From the IMG/VR virus record IMGVR_UViG_3300042564_004805, positions 1 to 64,000 of that record: a stretch of 64,000 nucleotides of DNA, one strand, 5' to 3'. The notes below the pieces were generated by a model. That model saw nothing but the letters and a program-made list of their open reading frames with translations, had not been told where the DNA came from and made no database searches. Source of the stretch: a virus (Duplodnaviria > Heunggongvirae > Uroviricota > Caudoviricetes). Of the stretch, positions 37,574 through 60,459 are shown one piece after another. The position numbers and the translations under genes are program-made. Position 1 is the stretch's first letter, and each line of letters begins with the position of its first letter.

Positions 37574-37603
37574 TTGGCAAAAATAGTCAATTTGCCTTAT
37601 AAT
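37574..37603 (+). promoter_or_regulatory. sigma70-like promoter (TTGGCA-18-TATAAT) internal to the plus-strand cluster
   Basis: ttggca at 37574-37579 and tataat at 37598-37603; AGGAA Shine-Dalgarno site before the ATG at 37628. Confidence 0.5.
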
Positions 37604-37627
37604 ATCTTGAAGCTTCGAGGAACTAGA

Positions 37628-38560: not shown

Positions 38561-40257
38561 TGAAAATAATGGCCATCAATCCCGGTCACAACAGCAGTGT
38601 GGCGCTTGTTGAAGACGGTAAGTTGCTGTTTTATAGCGAGGAAGAACGATGGAGTCGCCTAAAGTATGACGGTAATCCATTTAGAGCCATGCTATGGGTA
38701 CTAACTAATCATTTGGTAGACCACTTGATCATTGGTGGGACCACCACTAATTGGGTTACTCTTCCTTGGACTAACGAGAATGCCTATGCTGCATTAGCTC
38801 GCAAATTCAGTCCTAATGTGCAAGTTACCCTAATGGGCCATCTACATCACTTGGGTCATGCAGCTAATGCCTTCTATGGCAGTGGTTTTGAAACAGCATG
38901 CGCCTTGGTCGTAGATGGGGCCGGAAGCTATGTGCAAGAAAGCATGGGAGAAGGACTACCACTTACTGGGGGTTTTGAAACTGAAAGCATCTATCATTGC
39001 AGCTATCCACATGAGTTCAACGCAGTTTACAAAAGATACAGTGACGGTGCGGAAACCAGCCTCTACTACGACAACGGTATCCAAGAATTTGATAATAATG
39101 TTACTATTGTTAAGGCATACGAGAGTGTAAGTGATTATTTAGGATTTGGGGCTATTGAAGCTGGGAAGACCATGGGACTAGCTCCTTATGGCCAAGAAGA
39201 CAGCAACATTCCTGCCTTTTTCATCAACAATAAAGGCAACAAGAACTTGTTGATTCCTCGATATCCCACCGGCGCACACATTGACGAGAATAGATTTCCT
39301 TACTTGCGTAGATACACACAACCAAGTGACTGGCATAATAACTTTGAATTAGTGCGAGATCAAGACAAGAATCTAGCCTACCATGTGCAGAAAGAAACTG
39401 AAGAGCAGATGGTGAAGTTGATTGAGCGTGCTATTGACATTACTGGAGAAAATCGCATTGTAATCAGTGGTGGTTATGCACTCAACTGTGTTGCCAACTA
39501 CAAATATCTAGAACGTTTCCCTAATATTGAGTTTTACATTGATCCCATTGCACATGATGGTGGAACAGCCATTGGTTTAGCTCGGCATGCTTATTATGTT
39601 CTGAGCCAAGATACTACACCTCAACCACTCTCTCATCTCTACTTGAGTGTGTTGCCAGACTATAATCAGATTGAAACCACTATTGCTTCTGTTGAAGGTA
39701 TCAGCATGAGAGACACATCACCTGCTGAAGTGGCACTACTGCTGGCAGAAGGCAATATTGTGGCTTTGTTTCAAGGCGCTAGTGAAGGTGGGCCTCGTGC
39801 ACTAGGCAACAGAAGCATTCTTTTTGATCCTCGAGTAACCAACGGCAAGGATATTGTTAACCAAGTTAAAAATCGTGAATGGTTCCGCCCTTTTGCTGCG
39901 AGTGTGATGGCAGAACATGCAAATGACTGGTTTGACATGCGCAATCTCAATGAAAGCCCTTACATGATGTATGCTGTAAATGTGAAGGAAAGCCAAAGAG
40001 AGTTGATTCCTGCAGTTACACATGTGGATGGCACCTGCAGAGTACAAACTGTCACCAGCGAGCAAAACTTGCATTTGTATCAGCTGCTAGATGCTTTTCG
40101 GCAACAAACCGAAACACCGTTGCTGTTTAACACTAGTTTCAATCTAGCTGGGCAGCCATTGGTGGAAACACTGGTAGACGCCTTGATAACAATCTTCAAC
40201 TGTGATATCCACTACCTGTATCTTCCCGATCTGGGAATGTTAGTATGCAAACAGTAA
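38560..40257 (+). CDS. carbamoyltransferase (NodU/CmcH family)
   Basis: N-terminus MKIMAINPGHNSSVALVEDGKLLFYSEEERWSRLKYD matches Carbam_trans_N; length 565 aa fits. Confidence 0.8.
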   Translation: MKIMAINPGHNSSVALVEDGKLLFYSEEERWSRLKYDGNPFRAMLWVLTNHLVDHLIIGGTTTNWVTLPWTNENAYAALARKFSPNVQVTLMGHLHHLGHAANAFYGSGFETACALVVDGAGSYVQESMGEGLPLTGGFETESIYHCSYPHEFNAVYKRYSDGAETSLYYDNGIQEFDNNVTIVKAYESVSDYLGFGAIEAGKTMGLAPYGQEDSNIPAFFINNKGNKNLLIPRYPTGAHIDENRFPYLRRYTQPSDWHNNFELVRDQDKNLAYHVQKETEEQMVKLIERAIDITGENRIVISGGYALNCVANYKYLERFPNIEFYIDPIAHDGGTAIGLARHAYYVLSQDTTPQPLSHLYLSVLPDYNQIETTIASVEGISMRDTSPAEVALLLAEGNIVALFQGASEGGPRALGNRSILFDPRVTNGKDIVNQVKNREWFRPFAASVMAEHANDWFDMRNLNESPYMMYAVNVKESQRELIPAVTHVDGTCRVQTVTSEQNLHLYQLLDAFRQQTETPLLFNTSFNLAGQPLVETLVDALITIFNCDIHYLYLPDLGMLVCKQ

Positions 40258-42159: not shown

Positions 42160-43374
42160 TTAGTTTGCGTTCATGCTCGGAATAAGTGACGAATATTGTT
42201 TCACAAAAACTTTCCATGAACTCAGTTGATTTGGCTTGATGGGGTGGTCACGTGTAGTTGCCATAAACGACCGAGCACCCATTACAACCATCTCCGGTTC
42301 AAAGTTGTCCATCATGAACTGGAAGAAGCGATCGGCGCTCTTATACATGTCATCGTGCGAATTCTTCACACCATTCTGCTTATTACTCTCAGCTTTCTTG
42401 ACATCATCTGTGAGCTCATACACCAGTGCAGTGGTCAGTGCATAGCAAATGTCCATCTGCTTCACGTTCAGCTTGGTGACTGTGCCATCAAGGATGTCGC
42501 GTGCACGGGGTAGGTTAGCTGCTTGTCGACGATAGCTGAGGAACTTCAGGGCAGGACCCTCACCTACAGTGCCCTTGATGAGATCGCCAAGCACATCTGC
42601 TGGCAGATCCGTCTCGCGGTAGCTGCCATCCAGTTGGGGCTCATACAGCAGTTCGCTGACAAAGCTCCAGCTACGTGGGGTAGCAAACGCATAGCTTTCG
42701 CGACGGGGATCAAAGTCAAAGAGATCATTGGGCTGATAGCTGAGGTAACCCACCACATGCTCGTGGATGCGATTCATCATAGCCCATTCCTGCCAGTCAT
42801 CAAAGTCCACAGCCAGCGTTGCATGGATGAAGCGATTTGCCAGCGGAGTTGGCATGTTGTAGGCCACACCCTTGTCACGCACTCGGTTACCAGCAGCAAC
42901 CATCACTGCATCATCAGGCAGCTGGTAACTGCCAATGCGCCGGTTCAGGATCAGCTGATATGTGGCAGCCTGCACAGAGGGTGGTGCTGCGCTCATCTCA
43001 TCAAAAAACACCATTGCGCGGCTGTTGGGATCAGTGGGCAGATCGGTAGGGTTGCTCCACTTGAAAATCTTCTCTGTCAGTGGAACGTTGTGCTCATTCT
43101 TTACCACGTTGCCTTCTGCATCGCGGATAGTCACTTCTGCGAGGTGCGGAATGCCTCGAATGTCAGTGGCCTCAAGTAGGGGAAGTCGAATGTCAATCAG
43201 TGGGCGCTTCTGAGCACGAGCAACCTCTGCAACAATGTCACTCTTGCCAATGCCAGGAGGGCCGGCGATGAAGAGAGGTCGCTTCCTACGCGTCACGTGA
43301 TCGATCATCACCTTCAGCTTGCTGGGACTGACAGTAGTGATTGTCTGGATTTTCTCTTGAGCTGCCTTAGCCAT
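42160..43374 (-). CDS. MoxR-like AAA+ ATPase
   Basis: Walker A FIAGPPGIGKSDI; AAA_5-type core. Confidence 0.8.
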   Translation of the reverse strand: MAKAAQEKIQTITTVSPSKLKVMIDHVTRRKRPLFIAGPPGIGKSDIVAEVARAQKRPLIDIRLPLLEATDIRGIPHLAEVTIRDAEGNVVKNEHNVPLTEKIFKWSNPTDLPTDPNSRAMVFFDEMSAAPPSVQAATYQLILNRRIGSYQLPDDAVMVAAGNRVRDKGVAYNMPTPLANRFIHATLAVDFDDWQEWAMMNRIHEHVVGYLSYQPNDLFDFDPRRESYAFATPRSWSFVSELLYEPQLDGSYRETDLPADVLGDLIKGTVGEGPALKFLSYRRQAANLPRARDILDGTVTKLNVKQMDICYALTTALVYELTDDVKKAESNKQNGVKNSHDDMYKSADRFFQFMMDNFEPEMVVMGARSFMATTRDHPIKPNQLSSWKVFVKQYSSLIPSMNAN

Positions 43375-44199: not shown

Positions 44200-44613
44200 T
44201 CAGTCCACCTCGTAAACCACTCGCTTGAAAGTGGCAAAACGCTCCTCATGGGTCATGTTCTTGAGTTTTTTGCTGAGAATACTGAAGAGAAAGCTGAGAA
44301 AACGCTCAGGCACAAACTGAGTGTCTTTGCACACATGAGCATAGACATTGGGATTTAACAGTCGCATATCACGGATCAGCTCATGTTCACCATCTTTGCA
44401 GATGTTTGCTTGATACCATTTGCCACCCATGCATAGCCACATCCAAAATGTGGTGAAACTGCGAGATGTGAACAAAAGGCTGCCAGCAGCAATTACGCAA
44501 GTGGTGCCCTCTGAGGTTGGCAACCGGTCTACCAGGACACTTTCACCCAAATCGCTGGCGATTCGGAGGCATTCCAAATCTGAATGCTGGAAGTCTAGTA
44601 ATCGTTGTCCCAT
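44200..44613 (-). CDS. hypothetical protein
   Basis: ORF only. Confidence 0.4.
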   Translation of the reverse strand: MGQRLLDFQHSDLECLRIASDLGESVLVDRLPTSEGTTCVIAAGSLLFTSRSFTTFWMWLCMGGKWYQANICKDGEHELIRDMRLLNPNVYAHVCKDTQFVPERFLSFLFSILSKKLKNMTHEERFATFKRVVYEVD

Positions 44614-45287
44614 GTTACTCCTCCCTTTGTAAGTTGCTCTACCGCAGTCAATAGCAATTCTTTGCTGGCTTCAAAACCATGCAAATGATATTTCAAGGTT
44701 CTCAAGGGCAAGTTGCGGGTGTTGTCAGAGTCTTTCAAGAGCAGCTCTCCAGAAAGGCTGCCCCAAGCAGCAGATTCTGAAGCCAGCAGTGTTTTCCCAT
44801 CTGTGGCAAACTCACAATTGTGGAAGTCAAAGCTGTCCCAAACCTTCTCTACACTTTCTCCAAAGCGGCGTTTGATCATTTGCACTGTTATTCCTGTGAG
44901 CGGGGAATCACCTGGCATCCGATAAGTGATGGCATTATCACTTTGGTGTGCAACGTAAAACTTGTTTTTGGGTTTGGTCTGTAGGCATTTGAAGTTGTTG
45001 AAAAGCTCTACTGTGAAGGTGTTGTCTTCTTGTTCCATGCATTCAGTTTCTTTTTCAAACTCCTCCTGCACATTCACCATAAGAGAGGTTTCAAAGATTT
45101 TTTTCCAAGTGGCCAGCTGTTCCCCGCTGGTGAAAAACACATCTAAGTCACCAGTAGTCCAGGGATTGTTTTCCCAAAGTTTGCGTGCCGCGCCGCCAGC
45201 AATCCAAGGCCCTTCAGTAATACTCAAAGGAGGCATTCGAGCAATCAAAGTTTGGAATAAGGGATCAACCACAGGCTTCATCAACAT
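44595..45287 (-). CDS. hypothetical protein (possible nucleotidyltransferase-like GGAAR..GDLDVFF)
   Basis: weak G[GS]...D.D pattern. Confidence 0.4.
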   Translation of the reverse strand: MLMKPVVDPLFQTLIARMPPLSITEGPWIAGGAARKLWENNPWTTGDLDVFFTSGEQLATWKKIFETSLMVNVQEEFEKETECMEQEDNTFTVELFNNFKCLQTKPKNKFYVAHQSDNAITYRMPGDSPLTGITVQMIKRRFGESVEKVWDSFDFHNCEFATDGKTLLASESAAWGSLSGELLLKDSDNTRNLPLRTLKYHLHGFEASKELLLTAVEQLTKGGVTWDNDY

Positions 45288-48431: not shown

Positions 48432-49313
48432 TTAGGCGTAACTTCCAAATAAATGCAATTGCATATTAAAGACGAATCCGTTCTGGACACAATAACGAGC
48501 AGCGTGTTCGTGATTGGCTTGAGCAGTTTGCATATTGATAAGCCCTGGCGTCCAAAAACTCACAACTTCATCCACAATACTGCGTTCTTCAAGACTAATT
48601 TGATTTTTCTCAGCTCGAATTTGCTTGCTTTTCTGCGGTTCATGGTTGTAAATGTTCATGGGACTTACAAACACCTTCTTACCAGTTTGGTCCCGCCAGT
48701 TGTGTGCCCAGTCAGGGACATTATTGTAAGGAGTATCAGAATCTGCACTCATTACAAATTTCAAACAGTCTGCTCTTCCTAGCATTTCTGCTCGTGGTTC
48801 AAGATATTTCACCGGACGGCCATTTTTTTCACTGCACTTGGGACTTACTACTAAGGTAGTTTCCTGAGGAATGTTCTGGACGATAGTGCCGTTGCTTTCA
48901 ATTTGCGTTCGGGCAAACTGGGTATTCATATGCTCTAAAAATGGAACAATGTTTTTTTGTAGCATGGGCTCACCGCCAGTAAGCACGAGAACCATGTTGC
49001 GTTTCTTTACAGGATCACTTCCTGGACCCCCATACACAACATCAGCCCAAAGAGGGGTATTACCATTGAAGCTGTCAGAGATGCTCTTTGCGATTTTGGA
49101 GTCAATCTCTTGGATTGTCATCCAATCACCATCATCAAAGAAAGTATCACAAAATGAACATTGGAGATTGCACTTGGCTAGCCTAACAAACACAGCAGGC
49201 TCGCCTCGATATGGGCCTTCTCCCTGAAATGTGGTGAAAATACTAGTTACAAAAAGTTCATCTTCTGCATTTTTGAAGTAACGTTCACCAACCAGCTCAT
49301 TGCGTCCAAACAT
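48432..49313 (-). CDS. queE: 7-carboxy-7-deazaguanine synthase (QueE, radical SAM)
   Basis: FTTFQGEGPYRGEPAVFVRLAKCNLQCSFCDT and TGGEP match QueE IQGEG..FVR..C..CSWCD..SGGNP. Confidence 0.8.
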   Translation of the reverse strand: MFGRNELVGERYFKNAEDELFVTSIFTTFQGEGPYRGEPAVFVRLAKCNLQCSFCDTFFDDGDWMTIQEIDSKIAKSISDSFNGNTPLWADVVYGGPGSDPVKKRNMVLVLTGGEPMLQKNIVPFLEHMNTQFARTQIESNGTIVQNIPQETTLVVSPKCSEKNGRPVKYLEPRAEMLGRADCLKFVMSADSDTPYNNVPDWAHNWRDQTGKKVFVSPMNIYNHEPQKSKQIRAEKNQISLEERSIVDEVVSFWTPGLINMQTAQANHEHAARYCVQNGFVFNMQLHLFGSYA

Positions 49314-49375
49314 CCTAGATTCTCCTATTTGTTATAATTTTGTTGTAACCATGCAGACAAGTCAAGGAGCTTGTG

Positions 49376-50032
49376 TTAAAGCTGCCAAACTAGTTGATAG
49401 CCGTCATATACAAGCGGCACACAAATGTTTTGAAAGAATTCTTCCACATACTTGCCTTTGCCTATCCGAGAAGAAGAGTCACCAAAATTATCGTCCACAG
49501 CAATCATTGTGCCTGGACCCAAACAACTCCAAATTGCAGTCAATTCTTTCATATGATGAAAACTACTGGGATGAGGATTGTCTGGGTAAAAATCAAAACT
49601 GTCGAGATAGAGTAAGTTTATCTGACGGTTTTCTGCCTGCAACTTTTGACTTAAATTTCGTAACCAAACAACACTGTCTTGACAAAAAATTTGTGTGTTT
49701 GAGCACACTTGTGAGCGAGAAAAATTCACATGAGACTCATCCAAATCAACTGTCAATAGTTGCCCAGAAAAAGTTTCCACATACTTGTCAAAAATTATTG
49801 TACTGAAACCATCACCGTGGAATCCATGTTGTAGGCTGCGACTGCATCCAGTTTCAACAATCAACGGATTGGCAGTTTGTTTTAGATGATTTATCATTAT
49901 TTCAAAGCTGGCTTGGCGCTTACCTGTTTGGGCCAGCATTTGTTCAAGGCTCATGTCCATTTTTATTTCTCCCTTGTTATGTTCTGTAAGTGTGTTGGGT
50001 ATCAAAAGGATAGATATCACTTGTTTTGACAC
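49376..50032 (-). CDS. SAM-dependent methyltransferase (class I, O-MT/Methyltransf_24-like)
   Basis: IVETGCSRS...LLYLDSFD pattern. Confidence 0.5.
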   Translation of the reverse strand: MSKQVISILLIPNTLTEHNKGEIKMDMSLEQMLAQTGKRQASFEIMINHLKQTANPLIVETGCSRSLQHGFHGDGFSTIIFDKYVETFSGQLLTVDLDESHVNFSRSQVCSNTQIFCQDSVVWLRNLSQKLQAENRQINLLYLDSFDFYPDNPHPSSFHHMKELTAIWSCLGPGTMIAVDDNFGDSSSRIGKGKYVEEFFQNICVPLVYDGYQLVWQL

Positions 50033-50849
50033 CTAACCCAGGTGCAACATGTTGCGAGAATTTTTGTGCATTGGATAAGACAAAATTGGGAAAATAGTTG
50101 TTCAATTCCACTGTTTCAAAAAACTGTCCTGGGGTGTGATGGCTACCTTTTGTGGCTATAAATCTGTCAATGTCAAAGTTTTCGACTATTTCAGGTATAT
50201 TCTCATTTGTATGAACAAAACTGTTGATCTTTTGAATACAATGCTGATTGTTTCCCAATGAGCTCCAATGCCAACCTCCATGCGCAACAAAGGCTGTGCC
50301 ATCAGGCAACCCAACCCATGGAAACGTAAATGTTCGTTCTGTTTGAGGGTCAGTAAAGTCTTGAGACTTTGAGACAATAATACTTGGACCAGCTTGCCAA
50401 TCTACCCCATTTGTGGTTTTGATTCTCATGTAATTTAATTTATACAAATACTGTGGAGCAAACAAAATCCAACGAGTGTGCTGACTATCATGTTTTATGC
50501 TAGAAACTACTGATGCTCGAGGAATTTCATCGGCATCAGTTACAATGATCAAATCATCAGGGCTTTTGTCTCCTAGTCCTCGAGCAAGACATCTGCGTTG
50601 ATGATTTTCTCTGAACCAAAGGTTGTCTTCACCGCCAGGCATGTCATCAACAACAATGTGACGAATTTTCTGGGCATATTTTTCAAAGCGTTGTTTGTTT
50701 AGATCAAAATACAAGGGCTTGAACATGCCAGTATGTGTAACATTTGATTCAGCTAACACAAAATAGTCAACAACGTCCCATAGCTCTTCAAGGCGTATTT
50801 CAAGTAGATCTAACTCATTGAAAAAAGTAAAACAATCATATACTTTCAA
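49977..50849 (-). CDS. glycosyltransferase family 17-like (beta-1,4-GlcNAc transferase-like)
   Basis: N-terminus VYDCFTFFNELDLLEIRLEELWDVVDYFVLAESNVTHTGMFKPLYF is the GT17 signature. Confidence 0.75.
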   Translation of the reverse strand: MKVYDCFTFFNELDLLEIRLEELWDVVDYFVLAESNVTHTGMFKPLYFDLNKQRFEKYAQKIRHIVVDDMPGGEDNLWFRENHQRRCLARGLGDKSPDDLIIVTDADEIPRASVVSSIKHDSQHTRWILFAPQYLYKLNYMRIKTTNGVDWQAGPSIIVSKSQDFTDPQTERTFTFPWVGLPDGTAFVAHGGWHWSSLGNNQHCIQKINSFVHTNENIPEIVENFDIDRFIATKGSHHTPGQFFETVELNNYFPNFVLSNAQKFSQHVAPGLGVKTSDIYPFDTQHTYRT

Positions 50850-50867
50850 TTTTTTGTCCTTTGGCAG

Positions 50868-51575
50868 TTACAACAGTATTTTGTTTTGCCAACTGTTGCA
50901 CAAATTTATTTTTTCTGATTCACTTACACCAGGAAAATGCACAGCCCAATCGCCTGGCTGCCATGAGCCATCTGTCAACAGTTTGTCCAAGGCAGGTTTT
51001 GGTATATAAGGATATAGGTTGTAATCATAGCTGTTTAACATTCGTTGAGGCACAACTTGAATCGTTTTGTCCCAAGGATGTGGAATTTTCAAAGACTCGC
51101 CTTGCGGGTAACTTGGGTGGTGTGTGCCGGGGAACCCAAATAACTGATTCAATGCCCACTGTTCTGAGTCCCAATGTTGCAAAGCTTCTTTTTCCACTTT
51201 CAATAACTCGTGCAGTAATGACCGACACTGACTTGAGTTACGAAATAAAATGCTGCCTGTATTGAGGCCATTTACATCAGTTGAGATGAGTAAATCATGT
51301 GTGTCACTAGTTTTTTCTTGTATGGTTGTTTTGAAGTTGGTGATCAAAACATCAGTATCAGTATACCAAAGCCAACTGAGATGTGGGTGTGTGTCAAAAA
51401 GTTCCAACACCGCATGGATTCTGTCAAAGTGACTGGTCCAAGTGGTTTTTTCAAACAGATGATAATTGTGTCTCTGAGCATACAGCTTTTTGTTTTTGTC
51501 CAAGGTTATTTTTGAAAGTTCTGAGAAATTGTTGTTGTAAACAACCAGCAGTCCATACATGTGTTGCCCGATCAA
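50868..51575 (-). CDS. glycosyltransferase (GT34/GMA12-like)
   Basis: YAQRHNYHL...SWLWYTDTDVLITN. Confidence 0.5.
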   Translation of the reverse strand: MIGQHMYGLLVVYNNNFSELSKITLDKNKKLYAQRHNYHLFEKTTWTSHFDRIHAVLELFDTHPHLSWLWYTDTDVLITNFKTTIQEKTSDTHDLLISTDVNGLNTGSILFRNSSQCRSLLHELLKVEKEALQHWDSEQWALNQLFGFPGTHHPSYPQGESLKIPHPWDKTIQVVPQRMLNSYDYNLYPYIPKPALDKLLTDGSWQPGDWAVHFPGVSESEKINLCNSWQNKILL

Positions 51576-52369
51576 AAATAATTTCCATTTATGCGGTCAA
51601 ACCAACAATCGCCCCCGCCTCCTAGAGGAGTTTGTGTTTTTGTATCCCGATTGCCTTCGCACCAATAGCTTTTGCCCAAACCTATCGCTATAGCCAATGG
51701 CGCACTTTGATTGCCAATGAACATTTCACAACCTTGAATTACCTGTGCCAAATGCAACAGATCTAGGGTAGGAAAATAGTCAATAGTCTCCTTGAACTCT
51801 GTTTGCCACTCTTGATGTTCTCTAGGTGTGCCCACAAACACAGCCTGCTTGCACAGACCTTGTTTGATAAAATCCATCCATTTTTGTGTAGCACTGTTGT
51901 CTCTATGTCTAGGTGTTCGATTGATTACTATGGGTCGATTGGGGATAAGGATTGGGCTAACCTGTGTGAGCCAAGGCTCTCTCAACAACTGGTGCTGCAA
52001 TTGAACGTCAGTCATATCCCATCCCAGTCCCAAGGCATAGGCTTGAGTTTGATTACCTTGCCAACCAGAAGGTAATATGAATTTCCAATTTTCAGCTGCT
52101 AAATCATAATCAATGTGCTGGTTGGTATAGATTTGCACTTCATGCAAATAACTTTGGTGTAACAACAGGCTTTCAATGTTTTGAAAATCTTTTTCACTTA
52201 TTCTGCCTGTGAAGGGCTGATTGTACCAACCCAACACATTTCGGCAAAACTCATCAAGGTATCCCAATTTGAGGTAAATGTTGCCACCCCCAAGGATTTT
52301 TACTGCACAAAGACTGTATATTATATCACCAGCAGTGGCATAGGTTATGAAGTTTTTCAGCACAATCAA
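51572..52369 (-). CDS. glycosyltransferase family 9-like
   Basis: N-terminal ATAGDIIYSLCAVKIL GT9-like signature. Confidence 0.45.
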   Translation of the reverse strand: MIVLKNFITYATAGDIIYSLCAVKILGGGNIYLKLGYLDEFCRNVLGWYNQPFTGRISEKDFQNIESLLLHQSYLHEVQIYTNQHIDYDLAAENWKFILPSGWQGNQTQAYALGLGWDMTDVQLQHQLLREPWLTQVSPILIPNRPIVINRTPRHRDNSATQKWMDFIKQGLCKQAVFVGTPREHQEWQTEFKETIDYFPTLDLLHLAQVIQGCEMFIGNQSAPLAIAIGLGKSYWCEGNRDTKTQTPLGGGGDCWFDRINGNYF

Positions 52370-52414
52370 CCCAAGAAAACTATTTCAAAACTATACCAGA
52401 GTCGTGCAAGATTG

Positions 52415-52996
52415 TCACTTTTTCCTAAGAATGATTTCGATAGCTGATTCACCAATGGGTGTCAGTGTTTGATCTTGATTTTGAATATGGTATCGATAAC
52501 TGGCATCCAAAAGCTCAAGCTTCAAGATAGTGAGTTCGGGAAAGTTGGCTAGGAAACTTGTGCAGCTTACAGAAACAGGACTCCAGCTGAGATTTTTTTG
52601 AATTGTCCAAGTAGTTTTGTGATCCCAGTTGAAACGACTGGGAAAAACCCCTTGTTCATAAAGGTCTTCATCTGGAACCAATAGGACCATATGCCCACCT
52701 GGTTGCAAAATTCTGCTCCAGTTTCTCATAGCTTCTGTAGGGTCTCTCATGTGCTCAAGACAATGGCTGCTGAGTAACCAATCAAAACTGTTGTCAGCTA
52801 CACCTGCCATCAACTGCGCATCACCATCAGGTAGGTCCCAATTTCTCACCTGCTGCATTCCTGGAAAAAAATCTTTGTAATTGCTGACTGGGTCATCCCC
52901 AGCACCAATGTCAATGCCATTGCCTACGAAATATCGAGTAATAAATCTGCTGTCAGAGAGCCTTCTCATAACAGCTTTACTGGTTTCATGTGTCAT
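52415..52996 (-). CDS. SAM-dependent methyltransferase (Methyltransf_11/23-like)
   Basis: GIDIGAGDD motif I; LQPGGHMVLLVPD. Confidence 0.7.
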   Translation of the reverse strand: MTHETSKAVMRRLSDSRFITRYFVGNGIDIGAGDDPVSNYKDFFPGMQQVRNWDLPDGDAQLMAGVADNSFDWLLSSHCLEHMRDPTEAMRNWSRILQPGGHMVLLVPDEDLYEQGVFPSRFNWDHKTTWTIQKNLSWSPVSVSCTSFLANFPELTILKLELLDASYRYHIQNQDQTLTPIGESAIEIILRKK

Positions 52997-53501
52997 TTTG
53001 ATTCTCCAAACTGTTGTTTAACGCCTGCCAAGTGAGTTTCCCTTCTCTATGCTCAACTTCTGTTTCCAATGGCCTAATCAGGTCCTCATGGGAAACTTGT
53101 TTAGCTATCCTCAAACACTTTTTAACCCCTTGTAGATAACTTCTTGCTATAGCTACTTCCCCAGCGGCTTTTATGTCAATGCAGTTCTGCAAACTGTCTA
53201 CCAACTTAGATGCTGCCTTAGTGGGATGGTTTTGATGCCAAGTGACCTCACCTTGTATGCTGATGCTTAAGATGGTTTCGCCATAGTCATTGTCAACTCG
53301 CAATGCTTGAGTAGGCCTGGCATTACTGCTACCAAATGTCAGTAACGTACCAACCGTGTAACCTGATCCAAGGTTATTCACTGTGATACCGGTTACACTG
53401 CCTTGACAGACACTGGTTACCTTAAAAATATTAGAGGCCATCAGGAACCTCTGGGCGATTGCAAAAACTCTATAAAACGAGCTTGATCTTCCACAGCCCA
53501 A
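52986..53501 (-). CDS. hypothetical protein
   Basis: ORF only. Confidence 0.4.
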   Translation of the reverse strand: MGCGRSSSFYRVFAIAQRFLMASNIFKVTSVCQGSVTGITVNNLGSGYTVGTLLTFGSSNARPTQALRVDNDYGETILSISIQGEVTWHQNHPTKAASKLVDSLQNCIDIKAAGEVAIARSYLQGVKKCLRIAKQVSHEDLIRPLETEVEHREGKLTWQALNNSLENQNDT

Positions 53502-53725
53502 AAACTGAACCGAAAACTCTCATAGCTGATTTTTTCTGTGGACCAAATATTGGTGCAATTTTCCACACACCAATTGAACAACAGTTCATAACTGGGTTCA
53601 TAACGTTGGTTGGATGGCTTGTAAAGCTCTTCGAAGCTAAGGAGTAATTGATTGTGAATGAGTATTGCCCGAACACTCTCGGGCAACACATTCCACTCTC
53701 TATATCTACTGTTGATGATTTTCAT
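53441..53725 (-). CDS. hypothetical protein
   Basis: ORF only. Confidence 0.4.
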   Translation of the reverse strand: MKIINSRYREWNVLPESVRAILIHNQLLLSFEELYKPSNQRYEPSYELLFNWCVENCTNIWSTEKISYESFRFSFWAVEDQARFIEFLQSPRGS

Positions 53726-53764
53726 ATTTTGACCTAAAAATTCTCTGTTACAATAACTGTTGTA

Positions 53765-54481
53765 TTAGAGAGAGGTCAAGTCAACCATCTTCATAAATTC
53801 AGCACGAGCACTGGGATCCTGTTTGAACGCACCACCCAGCTTGCTGGTAACTGTGCTGCTGCAATCATCTTCAACGCCACGATGACTTACGCAATAGTGC
53901 TTGCCGTGAATGACGACAGCAATGCTATCGGTTTCCAGGATATATTCCATTGCATGAAAGATCTGCTCAGTCAAACGCTCTTGAATTTGTGGTCGGCGGC
54001 TAAAGTATTCGACAATTCGATTGATCTTGCTTAGGCCCAATACCTTTTCTTTGGGAATATAAGCCACAGTTGCTACACCATCAATCACAATGAAGTGATG
54101 TTCGCAGGCACTTTTGACAGTGACATTTCGTTCACACACCATTTCATCATAGCCCATTTTGTTGGCAACAGTGGTGCACTTGGGGAAAGCTTCCCAATCA
54201 AGACCCCAAAAAAGTTCCTGGATAAACATGCGAGCCACTCGTGTCGGCGTTTCAGCCAAACTATCATCTGATAGATTCAAGCCCATTGTTTCCATGATGT
54301 CCTTGAACTTGCGTTCAATAATATCAATTTTGTCTGTGCGGCTTAGGGAATTTTCCACTGTTGGGGTTTCAACCCCTTTGGAAACTAGGTATTCATGTAC
54401 TTTGCGACCCAGTTCAGGATCACATTTTGTGCGATTATAGCTCATATCTTTCCTTTCAAAGCATCTGTCGTTTATGCACAA
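53765..54481 (-). CDS. folE: GTP cyclohydrolase I (FolE)
   Basis: CEHHFIVIDGVATVAYIP..VLGLSKINRIVEYFSRRPQIQERLT..HCVSHRGV..STVTSKLGGAF are canonical FolE motifs. Confidence 0.9.
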   Translation of the reverse strand: MCINDRCFERKDMSYNRTKCDPELGRKVHEYLVSKGVETPTVENSLSRTDKIDIIERKFKDIMETMGLNLSDDSLAETPTRVARMFIQELFWGLDWEAFPKCTTVANKMGYDEMVCERNVTVKSACEHHFIVIDGVATVAYIPKEKVLGLSKINRIVEYFSRRPQIQERLTEQIFHAMEYILETDSIAVVIHGKHYCVSHRGVEDDCSSTVTSKLGGAFKQDPSARAEFMKMVDLTSL

Positions 54482-54548
54482 CGGGTGTTTCCACCAATTT
54501 GCTACCGTAATGTAGCAGACTATTTATAACACAAAAATTGTGTTATTG

Positions 54549-56207
54549 CTATTCAAATTCATCAAAATCCATGACAATGTTGTTATCAGCGTTCATTCCT
54601 GTGATTTTGGCTAACATAGCAGAATGTTTTTCAATCAGTTGCATGGGTTTTTCACTAGTGAAGATCTCTTCACAAAGTCCCCCAGCAAATTCAATCAAGT
54701 CTTCGCTGATGTGATGTTTCCTCTCCTCCATTGGCAGGTCTTGCATTGCACATGCATGTTGAATAGCTTCAATATGAAGCTCAACATTGTGGCTCATGCC
54801 CAGCACATAGCTGAGACCATCCATGCTGCTGGGCCATTTGACCTGATACTTTTCATGGTCCTTAAACTCTTTCTTGCCCCAATCAAACATGCCGCTGCCG
54901 TGGTCAGTGTGCTCATGCATAAGATAATGTTTGTATTCATCACTGTAGCGAAACTTCTCGCCATGAACGCCTTCCAAGCTTTGTTGATACAACAAGCTTT
55001 CAAACTCTTTTTGTGAAAAAGCTTGTTTTTTGAAATTGAGATCTTCATAACCTTTGACACAGATATCACCAATGGTGATCCGCTTGCCAATGCTGCTTTC
55101 GCGAACAGCATGTTTTTGATTGTGGCGATTGATCCAGTCTTGAAACAGTTCTTGACTGCCCTTAAGCTCTTTTTTGTCTGGCAACGAGTTGTTTTTATAT
55201 GCAATGCTTTGCGGACTTACTTCCCAACTGTAGTAGATGTTGCCTTTTGCTACGTTCACAAAAGGACTTGCTGCATCGTAACTGAGAGTTGTACGCTCGT
55301 TGATGTGCTTTCTCCACACTCGTTGAAGTGTAGTAAGAGCGCAGCCTGCCTTGATTTTGCCATTGCCTAGATAATGGATCCAATCTCTGTTATCCAAATA
55401 CTTGCCATCTCGCATGATAATGATCCGACGGAGATTTATAGCAAAGTTGCTGGCTTGCACATTACTGAATGCCCAGGTTTCAAAAGGAAGATCTTTCACA
55501 ACGTCCCACCAAATGTCACCTTCTTCTTGATTGCGCCCCTGCAACACATTCAAAAATTGTGTACTACCTTCCCGACGATTTTTGATGAAAAAGTTGTGAT
55601 TCTCCATACTGCTTTCAAGACAGTCTCTAAAGTTCTTAACCCCAGGATGTAGGTTCTCACCTGTGATGGGATCGTTACCAAACTTCAACAAGCTGCCTGT
55701 GGGGACATCTAATACCATACTGTAGTCACAAGTGTGTTCAAGCCAGCGTAGGATTTTCATCCTAATGGCGTCTTTGTCCTTCATCCAGTCTTGATCAGTT
55801 TGCTTTTCTTTTTTCTGCCAAGGCCATTTGAGAACGCCAGTAGCAATCTGATAACCACCACTGTCGCCCACAATTACTGAGGCGTTTTTGTCTCGCTTTT
55901 GCACCATAGCTTCTTGGATATCACTTTGAGCAGGATCCCAATAACTGTGACCGCTGCTGTAGAGTGCAGTGGGATAATAAAATAAGTTGGTATTGGTTTG
56001 CAGAAAGTCCAAATCCTGCAATCCACCCGGCAGCCCCTTGACTGTGCGAGCGTTGGGCTGACTTACTAGTCGCACATAGATCGCTGAGATTGAAGGAAGA
56101 AAAATAGCATAGTCCTTGTTGGTGGTCCACATGTCTCTACCCACCACAGGTTGCATGTTTTGATCAATTTTTTTCAAATGTGGGTTGGGGCTGGAAAGTT
56201 TTGTCAT
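54549..56207 (-). CDS. tRNA-guanine transglycosylase-like protein (candidate DpdA-type DNA 7-deazaguanine transglycosylase)
   Basis: VIVGDSGGYQIATG resembles the TGT catalytic ILTDSGGFQVFSL; sits next to FolE; 552 aa is longer than known TGT/DpdA. Confidence 0.5.
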   Translation of the reverse strand: MTKLSSPNPHLKKIDQNMQPVVGRDMWTTNKDYAIFLPSISAIYVRLVSQPNARTVKGLPGGLQDLDFLQTNTNLFYYPTALYSSGHSYWDPAQSDIQEAMVQKRDKNASVIVGDSGGYQIATGVLKWPWQKKEKQTDQDWMKDKDAIRMKILRWLEHTCDYSMVLDVPTGSLLKFGNDPITGENLHPGVKNFRDCLESSMENHNFFIKNRREGSTQFLNVLQGRNQEEGDIWWDVVKDLPFETWAFSNVQASNFAINLRRIIIMRDGKYLDNRDWIHYLGNGKIKAGCALTTLQRVWRKHINERTTLSYDAASPFVNVAKGNIYYSWEVSPQSIAYKNNSLPDKKELKGSQELFQDWINRHNQKHAVRESSIGKRITIGDICVKGYEDLNFKKQAFSQKEFESLLYQQSLEGVHGEKFRYSDEYKHYLMHEHTDHGSGMFDWGKKEFKDHEKYQVKWPSSMDGLSYVLGMSHNVELHIEAIQHACAMQDLPMEERKHHISEDLIEFAGGLCEEIFTSEKPMQLIEKHSAMLAKITGMNADNNIVMDFDEFE

Positions 56208-56216
56208 AGATATATC

Positions 56217-57305
56217 TTACTTTACTGTGGTTGATCTAGCAACTGTGTTGCTGATGTTTTCAAACATTACGCTAGCTGAAAGATATTTTTGTAAGAGCAC
56301 TTTCTTTTGCTTTTCCAACTGCCTACTGAACTTTTTGGGGTGATTCAATCTGTACTGAATAAATTCAGTCAATTGTTGTTTGTGTGTTTGATAACTTTCC
56401 CAATCTTGAGTCCAGTTGCTGGGATAGAGAAAATCAGGATGATACATTTCGCTGTAGCTGCACCGATTGGGCAGCACTGGGATCACATCTGCCAGCACAG
56501 CTTCCATTACACTGATGCCCAAGTTTTCATGCAAGCTACAGGAAAAAATTACTTGGCAGTCAGCCAGCTTTTCGTAATAACTGCTTTTGTTGAGATTCAT
56601 TTTTTGTGTAATACACCAAGGCTGTTTCATGCTGTTGGAGAGATCTTCAGCAATTTCAGGCTGCTTATCTGGATTGTAACGGTGTGGCCAAATAACGCCC
56701 TGTTTCCTCTCTCGGCTGTCCTGCATAATATCTTGCATTTGTTTGACAATAGCAGAGTGTGGTTGCCCACTAGTTTTGGCTTTGTGATGATATTCATTGC
56801 TGATGCCCAGATTGCTCAAAAACATTTTTTTATGAAAATCTGTTGCATACCAATTCTCATCGCAGGCATGAAACAGTGCCTGCTCAGCTAGCCAGGGCCA
56901 CGGTTTGCTCATTTTATATCCAAGGATATCAGTGGGATCGTATGCTCCAGCATGCCAGTAACCTTGTATGTTCCAATTATATCCCATGAGATCATTCATA
57001 TACTTGACTTGCAGAATCACTGGATTCCAAGCGTCAGTGAACAAATGCACATCATTTGGAGTTGTTTCTCCAGCATCATGTTTGTTGAGAAACTCAACCA
57101 GTTGAGTGCTTTTCCATCTGTTGGTGTCGCTGAAATTCAAAAATGCACCAGATGTGGTGCTTGTAGTGTTTTGGACCCCATCAAGTTGGATTACTTTTGC
57201 TGCATTTCCAACTATTTCTTGGAGCCGCAACGGAATCTCGTGATACCATTGTTGGGTGTAGCGATTATCCAATGGCTCGATAGGCCATACAAATACATTG
57301 GGCAT
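56217..57305 (-). CDS. glycosyltransferase (GT4-like)
   Basis: C-terminus HENLGISVMEAVLADVIPVL is Glycos_transf_1-like. Confidence 0.55.
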   Translation of the reverse strand: MPNVFVWPIEPLDNRYTQQWYHEIPLRLQEIVGNAAKVIQLDGVQNTTSTTSGAFLNFSDTNRWKSTQLVEFLNKHDAGETTPNDVHLFTDAWNPVILQVKYMNDLMGYNWNIQGYWHAGAYDPTDILGYKMSKPWPWLAEQALFHACDENWYATDFHKKMFLSNLGISNEYHHKAKTSGQPHSAIVKQMQDIMQDSRERKQGVIWPHRYNPDKQPEIAEDLSNSMKQPWCITQKMNLNKSSYYEKLADCQVIFSCSLHENLGISVMEAVLADVIPVLPNRCSYSEMYHPDFLYPSNWTQDWESYQTHKQQLTEFIQYRLNHPKKFSRQLEKQKKVLLQKYLSASVMFENISNTVARSTTVK

Positions 57306-57358
57306 TTTTGATCCTTCAAATATTCTCTAATAGAGATAGTATATAAACCACAGGAGTT

Positions 57359-57388
57359 TTTGACAATTATAGCATTGAAAATTATAAG
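57359..57388 (+). promoter_or_regulatory. orphan plus-strand sigma70-like promoter (TTGACA-18-TATAAG) abutting a long hairpin
   Basis: ttgaca at 57359-57364 and tataag at 57383-57388; no plus-strand ORF downstream. Confidence 0.35.
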
Positions 57389-57398
57389 GTTATCGCCA

Positions 57399-57460
57399 AT
57401 ACAAAGTATTTGAGCCAGCACAATCCTATCTCGATCTCCTGGCGCTCAAATACTTTGTAT
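57399..57460. terminator. long hairpin (17-bp perfect stem ATACAAAGTATTTGAGC, 28-nt loop) downstream of the QueD-like gene
   Basis: perfect inverted repeat at 57399-57415 and 57444-57460. Confidence 0.4.
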
Positions 57461-57475
57461 AGCAATCCTTGGTGG

Positions 57476-57847
57476 TTATGCAGCGTCCCAGGCTAGCACA
57501 GCCCCATTCTCACCATCTTCACTAACGTCAATGCTCACTGCACGACCTGGATAGCGAGCAGAGATTTGGGCGTAGAGGTCTTCGGCGATCATCTCGCAGC
57601 TTTTGAAATCCAGTTGGATCACACCATCACCATAGAGACTTTCCAGCCAACGCTTGAAAATGATAAATTCAATGTCTCGGTCTAGGTGATTGACGCCAAT
57701 TCCAACCTTGAAATGAAACATGTGCCTATGCGGATATTGAAGAAAATTTACATCTGCAAGGGAGGGGTCAGTTCCAGCTGCTGGATACTTGTGAATCCCT
57801 TCACGTTGAAAAGTCACGTAGATTTTTCTTGTAGTTGGTTCTGTCAT
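57476..57847 (-). CDS. possible QueD/PTPS-like T-fold protein (weak)
   Basis: VTFQREGIHKYP and PHRHMFHFKV loosely parallel QueD FTFEAAHRLP and HGHSFMVRL; the catalytic Cys is not evident. Confidence 0.3.
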   Translation of the reverse strand: MTEPTTRKIYVTFQREGIHKYPAAGTDPSLADVNFLQYPHRHMFHFKVGIGVNHLDRDIEFIIFKRWLESLYGDGVIQLDFKSCEMIAEDLYAQISARYPGRAVSIDVSEDGENGAVLAWDAA

Positions 57848-57903: not shown

Positions 57904-58131
57904 CTACACCAATTGATTTACTGTGCAATATTTGAGGCCACATTGTGCACTACAAAACTCAATACGGGTGGTCCCCATGTCACGGAAATATTCTGGCCAA
58001 ATGTCACTTTGAGTATGGACTACTGCCCCATCATTGTCACAAACGTATTTCCTGTAAGGCTCACAGCTTGTGCCGCATGCAACACATTTGAGAGTGGGAA
58101 AATTTGATGGAATGGTTTTTTTATGTTTCAT
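57904..58131 (-). CDS. small zinc-ribbon-like Cys-rich protein
   Basis: CVACGTSC...C...CSAQCGLKYC. Confidence 0.35.
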   Translation of the reverse strand: MKHKKTIPSNFPTLKCVACGTSCEPYRKYVCDNDGAVVHTQSDIWPEYFRDMGTTRIEFCSAQCGLKYCTVNQLV

Positions 58132-59120
58132 TTGGGTACCAGCGTATCAACAAAGATATCAGTTGTTTTTTCCCAACTCCATCGCTTGCTGCCTTCAAAA
58201 ACAGTTTTTCGACTCAATGTCAAACATTGCGAGATAGCTGTCTGAATATCCTCATTTAGCACACCAGTCACCCCATCATCTACAACATCTATTGGACCCT
58301 GCACAGGAAATGCTGCAACAGGAGTACCAACACTCATGCTTTCAATCATAACCAACCCAAACGTGTCACTTTTGCTGGTGAAAACAAAGCAGTCAGCATT
58401 TTGGAACTGCTGTACCAGTTGCTTACCGCTCAATTGCCCAGTAAATGTCACCCAGGGGTATTTGTTCTGTAACCGCTTGAGATCAGGGCCATCACCAACA
58501 CACACTAGATTGTATTTTTCTGCTGATAGGCTACAAAACACCTCTAAATTTTTCTCAGCACTGATTCGACCAACACTCAACAATGTGGGCTTGGTGTCAC
58601 ACTTGCGGTCATTAAATTGAAACAGTTGGGTGTTGACTCCCCGTGACCATGTGATGGCTTGAGACAGGCCAAGCGACACCATCTCTCTTTGCATAGTAGG
58701 AGTGTTGACCAAAGTTGCTGCACTATTTTGATGAAACCATTTGAGATACCTCATGGTTTTGAGGGCCGGCACACCAAATTTTTCCTTGAGATAGTGATCC
58801 CATCTTGTGTGAAAGCTAGTTGTGTAGCGCCAATTTTTGTTTTGAAAAAATTGCCTAGCAGTTAAGCCCAGCACACCTTCTGTACAAATGTGCAAGTGTG
58901 TGGGTTCATACGCCTCTATTCTTTTTTTCAAATTCCAAAAATTCAATGGTATGCGAGCACCTGGATATACCAATGCAGGCATAGACATCATTTGATCAGG
59001 AGTGATGTGAATGAGATTCTGTATGCCTCGAGAAAACATTTGTTTTTTCACTGCATTCATTGTAGTTACAACACCATTCACTTGGTCTTGGCAGTTGTCA
59101 TCAACAATCACAAGTCTCAT
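58128..59120 (-). CDS. glycosyltransferase (GT4)
   Basis: C-terminus DTFGLVMIESMSVGTPVAAFPVQGPIDVVDDGVTGVL is a Glycos_transf_1 signature. Confidence 0.65.
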   Translation of the reverse strand: MRLVIVDDNCQDQVNGVVTTMNAVKKQMFSRGIQNLIHITPDQMMSMPALVYPGARIPLNFWNLKKRIEAYEPTHLHICTEGVLGLTARQFFQNKNWRYTTSFHTRWDHYLKEKFGVPALKTMRYLKWFHQNSAATLVNTPTMQREMVSLGLSQAITWSRGVNTQLFQFNDRKCDTKPTLLSVGRISAEKNLEVFCSLSAEKYNLVCVGDGPDLKRLQNKYPWVTFTGQLSGKQLVQQFQNADCFVFTSKSDTFGLVMIESMSVGTPVAAFPVQGPIDVVDDGVTGVLNEDIQTAISQCLTLSRKTVFEGSKRWSWEKTTDIFVDTLVPK

Positions 59121-59905
59121 TCAAGGCTCCATGTGTTTTTCGTCATCATACTTTTTGTTTCAGTGTCGTAAACCAGTAGCTCTATTGAGCCATCAAAGTT
59201 TTCAACCAAAGCTGACACAGTTTCACAAAAATCACCACAATTCATATACACAAACCCATCCTCAAACGTTTTCAACGATGGAGAATGAATATGGCCACAA
59301 ATTACTCCATGAAATGCTTCGTCCCGAGCATATTGTACTACATGTTGCTCGTATTTGGTGATAAATGCAACAGCTTGTTTCGTGTTTGTTTTAAGGTATG
59401 AACTTAGACTCCAATAATCTTTTCCAAAAAACCGGCGCATATGATTCAAATGTGTGTTCAACCACAGTAAAAAACTGTGTGCTTTGTCGCCCATCAAGCT
59501 AAGCCATTTGTGATATCGAATTACACCGTCAAACAAATCACCGTGTGTTACCAAAAATCTCTGCCCATGAACAGAGTGATGTTCAAAGGCATTGCCCAGC
59601 TCAATGTTGCCAAAAGTGTGTATGTCTGGAATCCATGCTCGAAGGTACTCATCATGATTACCTAAAACATATCTCACCTGTGTGCCTCTCTTGGCCGCAG
59701 TGAGAATTCTTCGAACCACATTGCTATGTGTTTGTGGCCAGAATTTGCTGCTTTTCAATTTCCACAAATCAAATATGTCACCAACGAGGTATAGATTTTG
59801 GCAGGAGTTGTGTTTCAAAAACTCCACAAGTAGCTCAGCTTGGCATGCACGACTACCAAGATGCGTATCGCTTATGAAGATGCTACGATATTTGCTGTTT
59901 GGCAT
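59117..59905 (-). CDS. calcineurin-like metallophosphoesterase (LpxH-like)
   Basis: ISDTHLG, LYLVGDIFD, GNHDE motifs. Confidence 0.7.
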   Translation of the reverse strand: MPNSKYRSIFISDTHLGSRACQAELLVEFLKHNSCQNLYLVGDIFDLWKLKSSKFWPQTHSNVVRRILTAAKRGTQVRYVLGNHDEYLRAWIPDIHTFGNIELGNAFEHHSVHGQRFLVTHGDLFDGVIRYHKWLSLMGDKAHSFLLWLNTHLNHMRRFFGKDYWSLSSYLKTNTKQAVAFITKYEQHVVQYARDEAFHGVICGHIHSPSLKTFEDGFVYMNCGDFCETVSALVENFDGSIELLVYDTETKSMMTKNTWSLE

Positions 59906-60459
59906 TATAGACCTTTCAGGTTCATCAAAACTTTTTTATAGTTACTAAGATTCTTGTTCTGAAACCTCTTGTCGTTTGCGTCAATCCAGCGCCAAAAATT
60001 CTCCTGTAAGAGAGGATGAACCTCAGGAAGGTCTAACTCAAATTCTGGCATTTCCACTTCTGCCATGCTCAAATAAATGTCGCCGCTTTTGGGATTTTTG
60101 AAAAAATCCACGTCCCAACAGTTCAACCCTTCTTGAAACTTGCAGCGAGTTTTGTGGATTACGGGTTTAGCTATCAAGAAAAGTTTGTGATAGTCGTGGA
60201 TTGAAATTTCTGTTTCGATCTCCACTGTATTTCCAGTAACCTTGGTTTTGAAAGTGAACCAATGCGTTTCTGCATCACCATTGTGTGGTACCACATGTCG
60301 AATTCTTGCACTTTTGTTGATATAACCCTGTGTTATTTCAAAGGTTTGCACAAGGGGTTGGCGTTTCAAATGTCGTAGTAGCTCCTGCGGGCTTTCAGGT
60401 CGCAGGAGCATTTTGCGTTCGTGTTCAACTGGCACAAGCAGTCTCCAAAAAATGGGCAC
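59905..60459 (-). CDS. CYTH-domain (triphosphate tunnel metalloenzyme) protein
   Basis: N-terminal VEHERKMLL is EiErKfLv-like; later acidic EVEMPEFELDL. Confidence 0.55.
   Translation of the reverse strand: MPIFWRLLVPVEHERKMLLRPESPQELLRHLKRQPLVQTFEITQGYINKSARIRHVVPHNGDAETHWFTFKTKVTGNTVEIETEISIHDYHKLFLIAKPVIHKTRCKFQEGLNCWDVDFFKNPKSGDIYLSMAEVEMPEFELDLPEVHPLLQENFWRWIDANDKRFQNKNLSNYKKVLMNLKGL

Follow-up and report, generated by a model that had tools for sequence, protein, structure and literature searches.

Introduction

Modification of DNA with 7-deazaguanines allows phages to escape restriction and some CRISPR nucleases, and it complicates sequencing as well as the design of phage therapy. 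Phages that carry FolE, QueD, QueE, DpdL and DpdA and lack QueC have been described, and in phage phiST 2'-deoxy-7-deazaguanine (dDG) replaces dG completely (Cui et al., 2023, PMC10516641). In Vibrio phage nt-1, which has genes for QueC and ArcS, preQ0-derived bases take the place of <0.2% of G (Hutinet et al., 2019), and the DNA of the Pseudomonas jumbo phage PA5oct resists restriction enzymes at G-containing sites; the preprint that reports this resistance names a QueE and a PTPS-like gene only, with neither the transglycosylase nor the base identified (2025 preprint, PMC12191111). Here, we describe a gene cluster at positions 48432-57847 of a 64-kb stretch of viral DNA (IMG/VR record IMGVR_UViG_3300042564_004805, positions 1 to 64,000; hereafter the window, by which we mean the whole stretch analysed). 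We read it, with a probability of about 0.8, as a QueC-independent, 'DpdL-type' 7-deazaguanine DNA-modification module of known kind, following the pathway FolE-QueD-QueE-DpdL-DpdA, and its product is most likely dDG or a close derivative.

The window comes from a jumbo phage, and the deazaguanine module lies in its replication-gene region, with DNA polymerase B and a 5'-3' exonuclease among the neighbours. From 44.2 to 64 kb of the window, a span that takes in the cluster, every gene is on the minus strand and the packing is tight. Two longer contigs carry the same phage, one of 241,173 bp (JGI 3300043470 Ga0453122_0000009) and one of 326,193 bp (ENA ERZ27272062 k141_697863), which puts its genome at 326 kb or more; as no near-identical DNA was matched in a DNA-level search of the phage collection, we take the phage to be uncultured. 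Window proteins were searched against Pfam, NCBIfam (with its equivalog cutoffs) and PHROGs, and against PDB sequences by family profile, and the conservation of neighbouring genes was judged by local tblastn against ten other related loci (an eleventh, L003, is the same phage and was not counted as a relative). The inspected part of the phage genome is the window together with 10 kb beyond its start, ~74 kb.

Relationship to described systems

The cluster comprises genes for a QueE-like radical-SAM enzyme (48432..49313), FolE (53765..54481), a 552-aa protein that we assign to the DpdA family (54549..56207), a 362-aa GT4-like (GT-B) glycosyltransferase-like partner (56217..57305) and DpdL (57476..57847), all on the minus strand. 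With phiST and Acidovorax phage ACP17 (Cui et al., 2023) it has in common FolE, QueE, DpdL and a DpdA-family transglycosylase, the lack of QueC, a position adjoining the DNA polymerase and an identical DpdL signature, LxxxHRHxF; as in ACP17, there is also a GT4-like gene (~350 aa), which in that phage lies between DpdA and DpdL. However, phiST has a 259-aa DpdA3, with no GT4-like partner found in its locus, and ACP17 has a 424-aa DpdA2-like enzyme in place of the 552-aa family seen here, which TGT profiles do not detect. The window cluster also differs from both in having no QueD and in carrying an inserted 4.3-kb glycosyltransferase/methyltransferase block.

The locus of PA5oct (Wroclawvirus) is syntenic, sharing the DNA polymerase, a structural protein, QueE, a 203-aa protein and RNase H, and it encodes homologues of the transglycosylase (540 aa, 30% identity), the GT-B partner (353 aa, 35%) and DpdL (55%), the module genes all being annotated as hypothetical proteins. 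PA5oct lacks the glycosyltransferase/methyltransferase block, FolE was not detected in its 25-kb locus, and its QueE is taken from the annotation, being too diverged for tblastn. Our assignment places a DNA-inserting DpdA-family enzyme that sequence libraries miss, together with DpdL, in a highly abundant group of uncultured jumbo phages, and the same assignment extends to the therapy-relevant PA5oct group, for which the transglycosylase behind the 'modified G' is not identified in the searchable literature.

Among characterised viral enzymes, the nearest structural neighbour of the 552-aa protein is DpdA2 of phage nt-1, which is likewise long (464 aa), has a C-terminal extension and shares the motifs DSGGxQ, D.(I/V)P, QG, H.LG.G and SYD, although the two proteins show no pairwise BLAST similarity and their C-terminal regions do not align. 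The distance from Salmonella Montevideo DpdA (PDB 7ui4) and from tRNA TGT is greater: identity is 11-14%, there is no DpdB partner, the C-terminal region is a different one, and the predicted substrate is 7-deazaguanine (DG) or 7-carboxy-7-deazaguanine (CDG) rather than preQ0, preQ1 or queuine.

A divergent DpdA-family protein

The AlphaFold model of the 552-aa protein, built on an alignment of family homologues (pLDDT 88, pTM 0.85), has a TGT-type (beta/alpha)8 barrel over about the first 340 residues, followed by a mostly helical C-terminal region of ~200 residues. In fold comparison its best structural match is the DNA enzyme DpdA. A Foldseek search of BFVD returned nt-1 DpdA2 as the nearest viral neighbour (8.5e-11), with weaker matches to a mycobacteriophage protein annotated as a queuine tRNA-ribosyltransferase (2e-5) and to phiST DpdA3 (2e-3). 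A sequence-only reading of the window had described this protein, lying beside FolE, as TGT/DpdA-like and had proposed structure prediction as a check on the fold, and the barrel bears the description out. It had also found the protein unusually long; the additional ~200 C-terminal residues are there, but the length is less odd than it seemed, since the DpdA2-type proteins that we collected already span 403-464 aa.

Three aspartates are invariant among 35 members of the family, D115 (GDSGGxQ), D167 (LDxP) and D311 (SYDxxSP), as are H278, L280 and G281 (HxLGxG); the window protein itself reads GDSGGYQ, VLDVP and SYDAASP around the aspartates. The order of the motifs is that of the DpdA2 type (DSGGLQ, FDEIP, QGN, HLLGVGS and SYDS, as aligned by hhalign). 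In the DpdA structure paper, three active-site aspartates (Asp95, Asp130 and Asp256), among which are a general acid/base in DSGGF, a base-binding Asp and a nucleophile, are invariant across TGT and DpdA, and mutation of Asp95 or of the nucleophile Asp abolishes exchange (PMC10164549); the three residues have invariant counterparts in D115, D167 and D311, a correspondence with TGT numbering made by motif, not by superposition.

A profile of 35 homologues did not find TGT among PDB sequences, nor did a DpdA2-like alignment match any PDB sequence, and because no TGT model gave a significant sequence match, the DpdA-family assignment rests on fold and motifs. In canonical tRNA TGT the nucleophile strand is followed by a Zn-binding motif, CxCxxC...H. 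The 552-aa protein has none after D311, and its only conserved cysteines are C196 and C383. From the model and the motifs we place the protein in the DpdA family, as a transglycosylase of a divergent clade that has DpdA2 as its closest neighbour and is predicted to exchange guanine on DNA. A DpdA3 label was considered and rejected, as hhalign gave no match to phiST DpdA3.

The family is large, with 605 cluster representatives at 90% identity; nearly all are 520-560 aa long, none has a Pfam domain, and many lie on contigs of 100-520 kb. We also note a shorter (481-aa) DpdA-like subfamily (L008, 10001-11446), whose neighbours are an MPTase-PolyVal gene, a dCMP deaminase and ThyX. FolE, QueE and the GT4-like partner are absent within 10 kb of this gene, and a DpdL homologue lies ~10 kb downstream (about 21008).

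DpdL, FolE and QueE

The 123-aa open reading frame (ORF) at 57476..57847 has a QueD-like T-fold and had been put forward as a weak QueD candidate. This identity is rejected here: a Leu occupies the position of the catalytic Cys of CxxxHGH, and there is no match to PF01242. Instead, the protein carries the signature of DpdL, a QueD paralogue in which CxxxHGH has turned into LxxxHRHxF (Cui et al., 2023, NAR 51:9214, PMC10516641). It reads L36-QYP-H40-R41-H42-M-F44, and the five signature positions are invariant in 29 homologues. By tblastn it is 54% identical to ACP17 gp125, a DpdL (5e-36), and 37% identical to the founding DpdL, CGPG_00067 of phiST (8e-11). Its genome context fits as well, with DpdA, FolE and QueE present and QueC absent from the window and the ~10 kb beyond its start. 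The family profile did not match QueD among PDB sequences, and at least 8000 close homologues were found, none with a Pfam domain. By signature and homology, the gene is DpdL, a predicted 7-carboxy-7-deazaguanine decarboxylase that would give 7-deazaguanine.

FolE (GTP cyclohydrolase I, which converts GTP to dihydroneopterin triphosphate) is unambiguous, as the sequence-only reading had it: the protein scores 307.7 bits against NCBIfam NF006824 (equivalog cutoff 202) and 226 against TIGR00063 (cutoff 182), and it matches Pfam GTP_cyclohydroI (PF01227) at 2e-60. It is only 31-37% identical to the FolE proteins of the closest relatives and 59% identical to that of ACP17, and it looks like a replaced, foreign copy beside the inserted glycosyltransferase/methyltransferase block. 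Because the window FolE is nearer the ACP17 protein than those of its relatives, the segment from FolE to QueE appears to have been remodelled.

The QueE call also holds, with a qualification. The ORF contains the radical-SAM cluster motif CNLQCSFC (CxxxCxxC), its five top NCBIfam matches are all QueE models (E 2e-21 to 6e-14), it matches PHROG 2076 'QueE-like' at 1e-49, and it is kept in relatives at 46-69% identity. Its score of 77 bits is well under the QueE equivalog cutoffs of 200-300. As the best matches are nonetheless to QueE, we regard it as a divergent, phage-type QueE, which would convert CPH4 to CDG. The profile searches suggested by the sequence-only reading, run here on the window, thus recovered FolE and a QueE-like enzyme but matched no TGT or QueD model.

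In two other DpdL clusters there are extra enzymes that hint at pathway variation: a PP-loop 'PAPS reductase family' protein beside FolE in Xanthomonas phage X1 (L011, 7335-7868), and a xanthine-guanine phosphoribosyltransferase beside QueE in Synechococcus phage BUCT-ZZ01 (L098, 2748-3209).

A proposed QueC-independent pathway

The earlier observation that no QueC is visible in the window is correct: the PP-loop motif SGGxDS occurs in none of the six frames over the 64 kb, and the QueC proteins of nt-1 and Ps15 gave no tblastn match. The earlier reading treated this as a missing step, or allowed that QueC might lie outside the window. Neither is needed, because DpdL is present and the pathway can branch at CDG, so that the absence of QueC is the expected state of a known pathway variant. 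The proposal that these genes, with FolE and QueE and now DpdL, modify DNA with a 7-deazaguanine by way of a DpdA-type transglycosylase is supported, and so is a CDG-derived base; further decoration of that base by the glycosyltransferase/methyltransferase block is not, for reasons given below.

From the observed gene identities, folds, conserved residues and linkage the following pathway can be proposed, in which every chemical step, the base and its protective role are predicted from the genes. FolE would convert GTP to dihydroneopterin triphosphate, which would be converted to CPH4 by a QueD encoded in another part of the genome or supplied by the host, and the QueE-like enzyme would then produce CDG. 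DpdL, a T-fold protein with no catalytic Cys, would remove the carboxyl group of CDG and so give 7-deazaguanine, and the 552-aa transglycosylase would swap guanine in the phage DNA for this base after replication, with D311 as the nucleophile and D115 as the general acid/base, as in TGT and DpdA. The likely effect would be DNA resistant to restriction enzymes with G in their sites.

Several points weigh against this scheme. No QueD turned up across the 64-kb window and the 10 kb beyond its start: four QueD proteins of relatives gave no tblastn match at E up to 1 in the window or the loci of the same phage, and when IMG/VR was scanned with a relative's QueD, the contig of this phage was not among the matches listed (at least 80 loci). 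A PF01242 QueD does lie between FolE and QueE in relatives at 63-69% DpdA-like identity and in the P0098 contig, and the closest relatives, L012 and L013, likewise have no QueD near the cluster; the gene may reside elsewhere in the genome of at least 326 kb, or the activity may be supplied by the host. The 552-aa protein has no match in Pfam (PF01702 included), NCBIfam or PHROGs, and hhalign aligns its family to DpdA2 with an E of only ~1e-3 and a probability of 21-25%. Decarboxylase activity is so far a prediction for every DpdL, and DpdL and DpdA of phiST or ACP17 made no dDG in E. coli; after the ACP17 reconstitution failed, the authors suggested that further enzymes might be needed (PMC10516641). 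The base in this phage and in PA5oct is a prediction from the genes. Finally, the conserved GT4-like partner has no place in the dDG scheme, and the final base may differ from dDG.

The conserved GT4-like partner

The 362-aa protein is 35% identical to PA5oct EST35_0317 (3e-65) and 30% identical to ACP17 gp124 (3e-53). On its own it matches Glycos_transf_1 weakly (E 0.006), and its assignment as GT4-like is made at the level of the family: Glycos_transf_1 is matched by 24 of 41 diverse members (best E 1.3e-8), the family profile matches the GT4 glucosyltransferase AmGGT (8xsg) at 5.8e-5, and E260 and E268 are invariant and form an EX7E motif, so that the family combines a Glycos_transf_1 C-terminal domain with EX7E. 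It comprises 1108 clusters at 50% identity.

The sequence-only reading had counted this gene as just one of several interleaved sugar transferases. It is instead conserved with the module. Homologues lie beside DpdL and/or the DpdA-type gene in Xanthomonas phages X1 and BUDD, Burkholderia phage BCSR5, Sinorhizobium phage Phosso and cyanophage BUCT-ZZ01 (hhalign probability 99.8% for the last). The adjacency is kept while the order of the genes changes, from DpdL-GT-DpdA in the window to DpdA-GT-DpdL in PA5oct and ACP17, GT-DpdA-DpdL in X1 and DpdA-DpdL-GT in BUCT-ZZ01; in Phosso, DpdL and the GT-like gene adjoin and the DpdA-like gene is 170 kb away. By its linkage, then, the GT4-like gene is the one sugar-transferase-like gene conserved with the module.

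This conservation raises the possibility, the most serious of the alternatives although still a tentative one, that the partner has the deazaguanine base, a precursor of it or the base within DNA as its substrate, in which case the clade of this phage, PA5oct, ACP17, X1 and BUCT-ZZ01 would carry a sugar-bearing or otherwise further modified 7-deazaguanine and not plain dDG. The persistent adjacency and the invariant EX7E residues are consistent with such a role, as is the failure of ACP17 DpdL and DpdA alone to yield dDG, after which other enzymes were suspected (PMC10516641); and phiST, in which plain dDG was measured, has no homologue of the 362-aa protein in the 14-kb locus examined or among the matching phage records. 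However, 7-deazaguanine has no evident group to which a glycosyltransferase could attach a sugar, the first Glu of EX7E is replaced in BUCT-ZZ01, and GT-B folds also serve roles other than glycosyl transfer. A plain dDG or close derivative remains the reading that we favour.

Since the two-gene reconstitution failed and its authors suspected a missing enzyme, we consider the partner the most interesting point of the locus, and it may explain why DpdL and DpdA alone made no dDG in E. coli. In a bolder and more doubtful version of the same idea, the GT4-like protein would be that missing enzyme; phages with the triad (PA5oct-like jumbo phages, ACP17, Xanthomonas X1 and BUDD, BUCT-ZZ01 and hundreds of uncultured jumbo phages) would carry a sugar-linked or further elaborated 7-deazaguanine, which the GT17, GT34 and methyltransferase genes of this phage would perhaps extend. 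If true, this would add a new purine hypermodification to those described in DNA; in our literature search no paper dealt with a deazaguanine that is glycosylated.

A tie of the 362-aa protein to the tRNA queuosine mannosyltransferase (QTMAN) was also considered and set aside, on weak evidence: searches with five diverged family members at E up to 10, in which HMMER filters drop most matches above ~0.1, listed no families beyond those of Glycos_transf_1 type and chance matches, and an N-terminal domain of QTMAN type was not among them. As a separate observation, in L012, a relative at 69% identity, an IS605 TnpA/TnpB and an HhH-GPD DNA-glycosylase-family gene lie directly upstream of the GT4-like partner (5723-9063).

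The block between QueE and FolE

QueE and FolE are separated in the window by a 4.3-kb, lineage-specific block on the minus strand (49376..53725). It contains a Methyltransf_24-like gene with a weak match (49376-50032; E 0.003), a GT17 (49977-50849; Pfam 2e-27), a GT34 (50868-51575; Pfam 6e-21), a 265-aa ORF without family assignment (51572-52369), a class I methyltransferase (52415-52996; Pfam 1e-10) and two small ORFs without family assignment (52986-53501 and 53441-53725). We reject the GT9 label that had been given to the 265-aa ORF, its GT9 match having a Pfam E of 0.09. Of the transferases said to be interleaved with the deazaguanine genes, GT17, GT34 and the methyltransferase at 52415-52996 are thus confirmed, the second methyltransferase is weak and GT9 is unsupported. 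As for GT4, the 362-aa partner inside the cluster is weak alone and clear as a family, and the clear GT4 at 58128-59120 lies outside the cluster.

The same reading had suggested a further methylated or glycosylated deazaguanine; on this view the GT17, the GT34, the 265-aa protein and two methyltransferases would modify the base, and the result would be peculiar to this phage. In its favour, the block separates FolE from QueE, shares their strand and has closely spaced genes, and it adjoins a FolE that appears to be a replaced copy, so that the whole segment possibly arrived together. Its distribution in relatives points the other way. Where the DpdA-like protein is 57-72% identical, the core of DpdL, GT-B partner, DpdA-like protein, FolE and QueE occurs without the block; a wider core, downstream of DNA polymerase B, of DpdL, a ~360-aa protein, the DpdA-like protein, FolE, QueE, a ~200-aa protein and a 5'-3' exonuclease is present in five metagenomic relatives (L007, L009, L010, L012 and L013) and, except for FolE, in PA5oct. 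These five, PA5oct, ACP17 and X1 retain the core and gave no tblastn match to the block genes, with the one exception of a 171-aa ORF that has a weak 27% match in L010. In L012 and L013 QueE directly follows FolE (the L012 QueE gene containing an intein), and in other relatives the two genes are separated by QueD, by small ORFs or by homing-endonuclease-like genes (a weak SegE GIY-YIG match in L010), suggesting that the slot is an insertion hot spot.

Further sugar genes lie far from the cluster, among them a GT25, a GT1, a carbamoyltransferase and an epimerase/dehydratase. Members of the GT17 and GT34 families build glycans and are not known to act on DNA, and tblastn against phages gave two matches for the GT17 and none for the GT34. 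As the block is absent in relatives and sugar genes are scattered over the window, the interleaving is best read as glycan genes in a variable slot. The block is most likely a recent insertion concerned with glycan synthesis apart from DNA and is probably not part of the core module, and we consider its action on the deazaguanine quite unlikely. Gene interleaving in phage genomes is a weak sign of shared function unless it is kept in relatives.

Other pathways

It is comparably improbable that the locus follows the preQ0 pathway, with QueC and further genes outside the window and dPreQ0, dADG, dG+ or dPreQ1 as the product. The inspected ~74 kb are a part of a genome of at least 326 kb, and QueD is not in that part either, so that pathway genes are possibly dispersed. 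However, the window and 17 related loci yielded no QueC homologue (398 kb in total), in six relatives the gene is also missing from the 10 kb next to the cluster, and no amidotransferase or QueF was seen nearby. A role in tRNA modification or in pterin/folate metabolism in place of DNA modification is the least probable of all: FolE also supplies folate synthesis and the TGT fold is primarily that of a tRNA enzyme, but in structure the 552-aa protein is closest to the DNA enzyme DpdA (with DpdA2 as the nearest viral neighbour), the genes lie among replication genes such as DNA polymerase B and the 5'-3' exonuclease, the window encodes no tRNA, and PA5oct DNA is restriction-resistant at G-containing sites (PMC12191111).

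Other genes in the window

Beyond DpdL, a GT4 glycosyltransferase (58128-59120, minus strand; Glycos_transf_1 5e-23, Glyco_transf_4 2e-11) is paired with an LpxH-like metallophosphoesterase (59117-59905, minus strand; Metallophos 2e-8). The pair (58128..59905) is accessory, occurring in L010 and L013 and not in L007, L009, L012 or PA5oct. It is followed by a 184-aa ORF (59905-60459, minus strand) with an EHERK motif and a weak match to CYTH, the triphosphate tunnel metalloenzyme family (E 3e-4). This ORF is situated between the module and the DNA polymerase, and among the relatives only the two closest keep it.

Of the distant sugar genes, the GT25 is at 17220-17948, and the epimerase/dehydratase (7973-9115, minus strand; NAD-dependent epimerase/GDP-mannose-dehydratase-like) sits in a stretch, at 8-10 kb of the window, of 62.5% G+C, against 40-55% elsewhere, which suggests recent acquisition from a high-GC donor. 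On the plus strand, the region 28787-40257 begins with a 2378-aa ORF that has at least four repeats containing CGYACLDCTSSYKIGT and a C-terminal Peptidase_S74 intramolecular-chaperone domain, by which we identify it as a tail fibre. It is followed directly by the GT1 family gene (35935-36843), two ORFs without assignment and the NodU/CmcH-type carbamoyltransferase (38560-40257), and the region may be a virion or fibre glycosylation cassette.

Downstream of the module, a 230-aa protein with a Gad2 domain (44595-45287, minus strand; PF26128, precomputed match) is kept in several relatives at ~25-31% identity and is possibly an anti-defence gene. A DUF2201 metallopeptidase/VWA-like protein (27251-28513) and an AAA_5 (MoxR-like) ATPase (42160-43374), both on the minus strand, recur as a pair downstream of the module in L007, L009 and L013. 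Also on the minus strand is an RNA-repair-like set (1841-3058, 9784-10995, 16704-17207, 21199-22086 and 25077-25655), whose members are a T4 Rnl1-type RNA ligase, a second RNA ligase, a NUDIX protein, an RlaP nucleotidyltransferase and an Rv2179c-like 3'-5' exoribonuclease. Finally, homing-endonuclease genes of HNH and NUMOD3 type are found at 4431-5213 (minus) and 26196-27227 (plus), and relatives carry inteins in DNA polymerase B (L010 and L013) and QueE (L012), making this a region rich in selfish elements.

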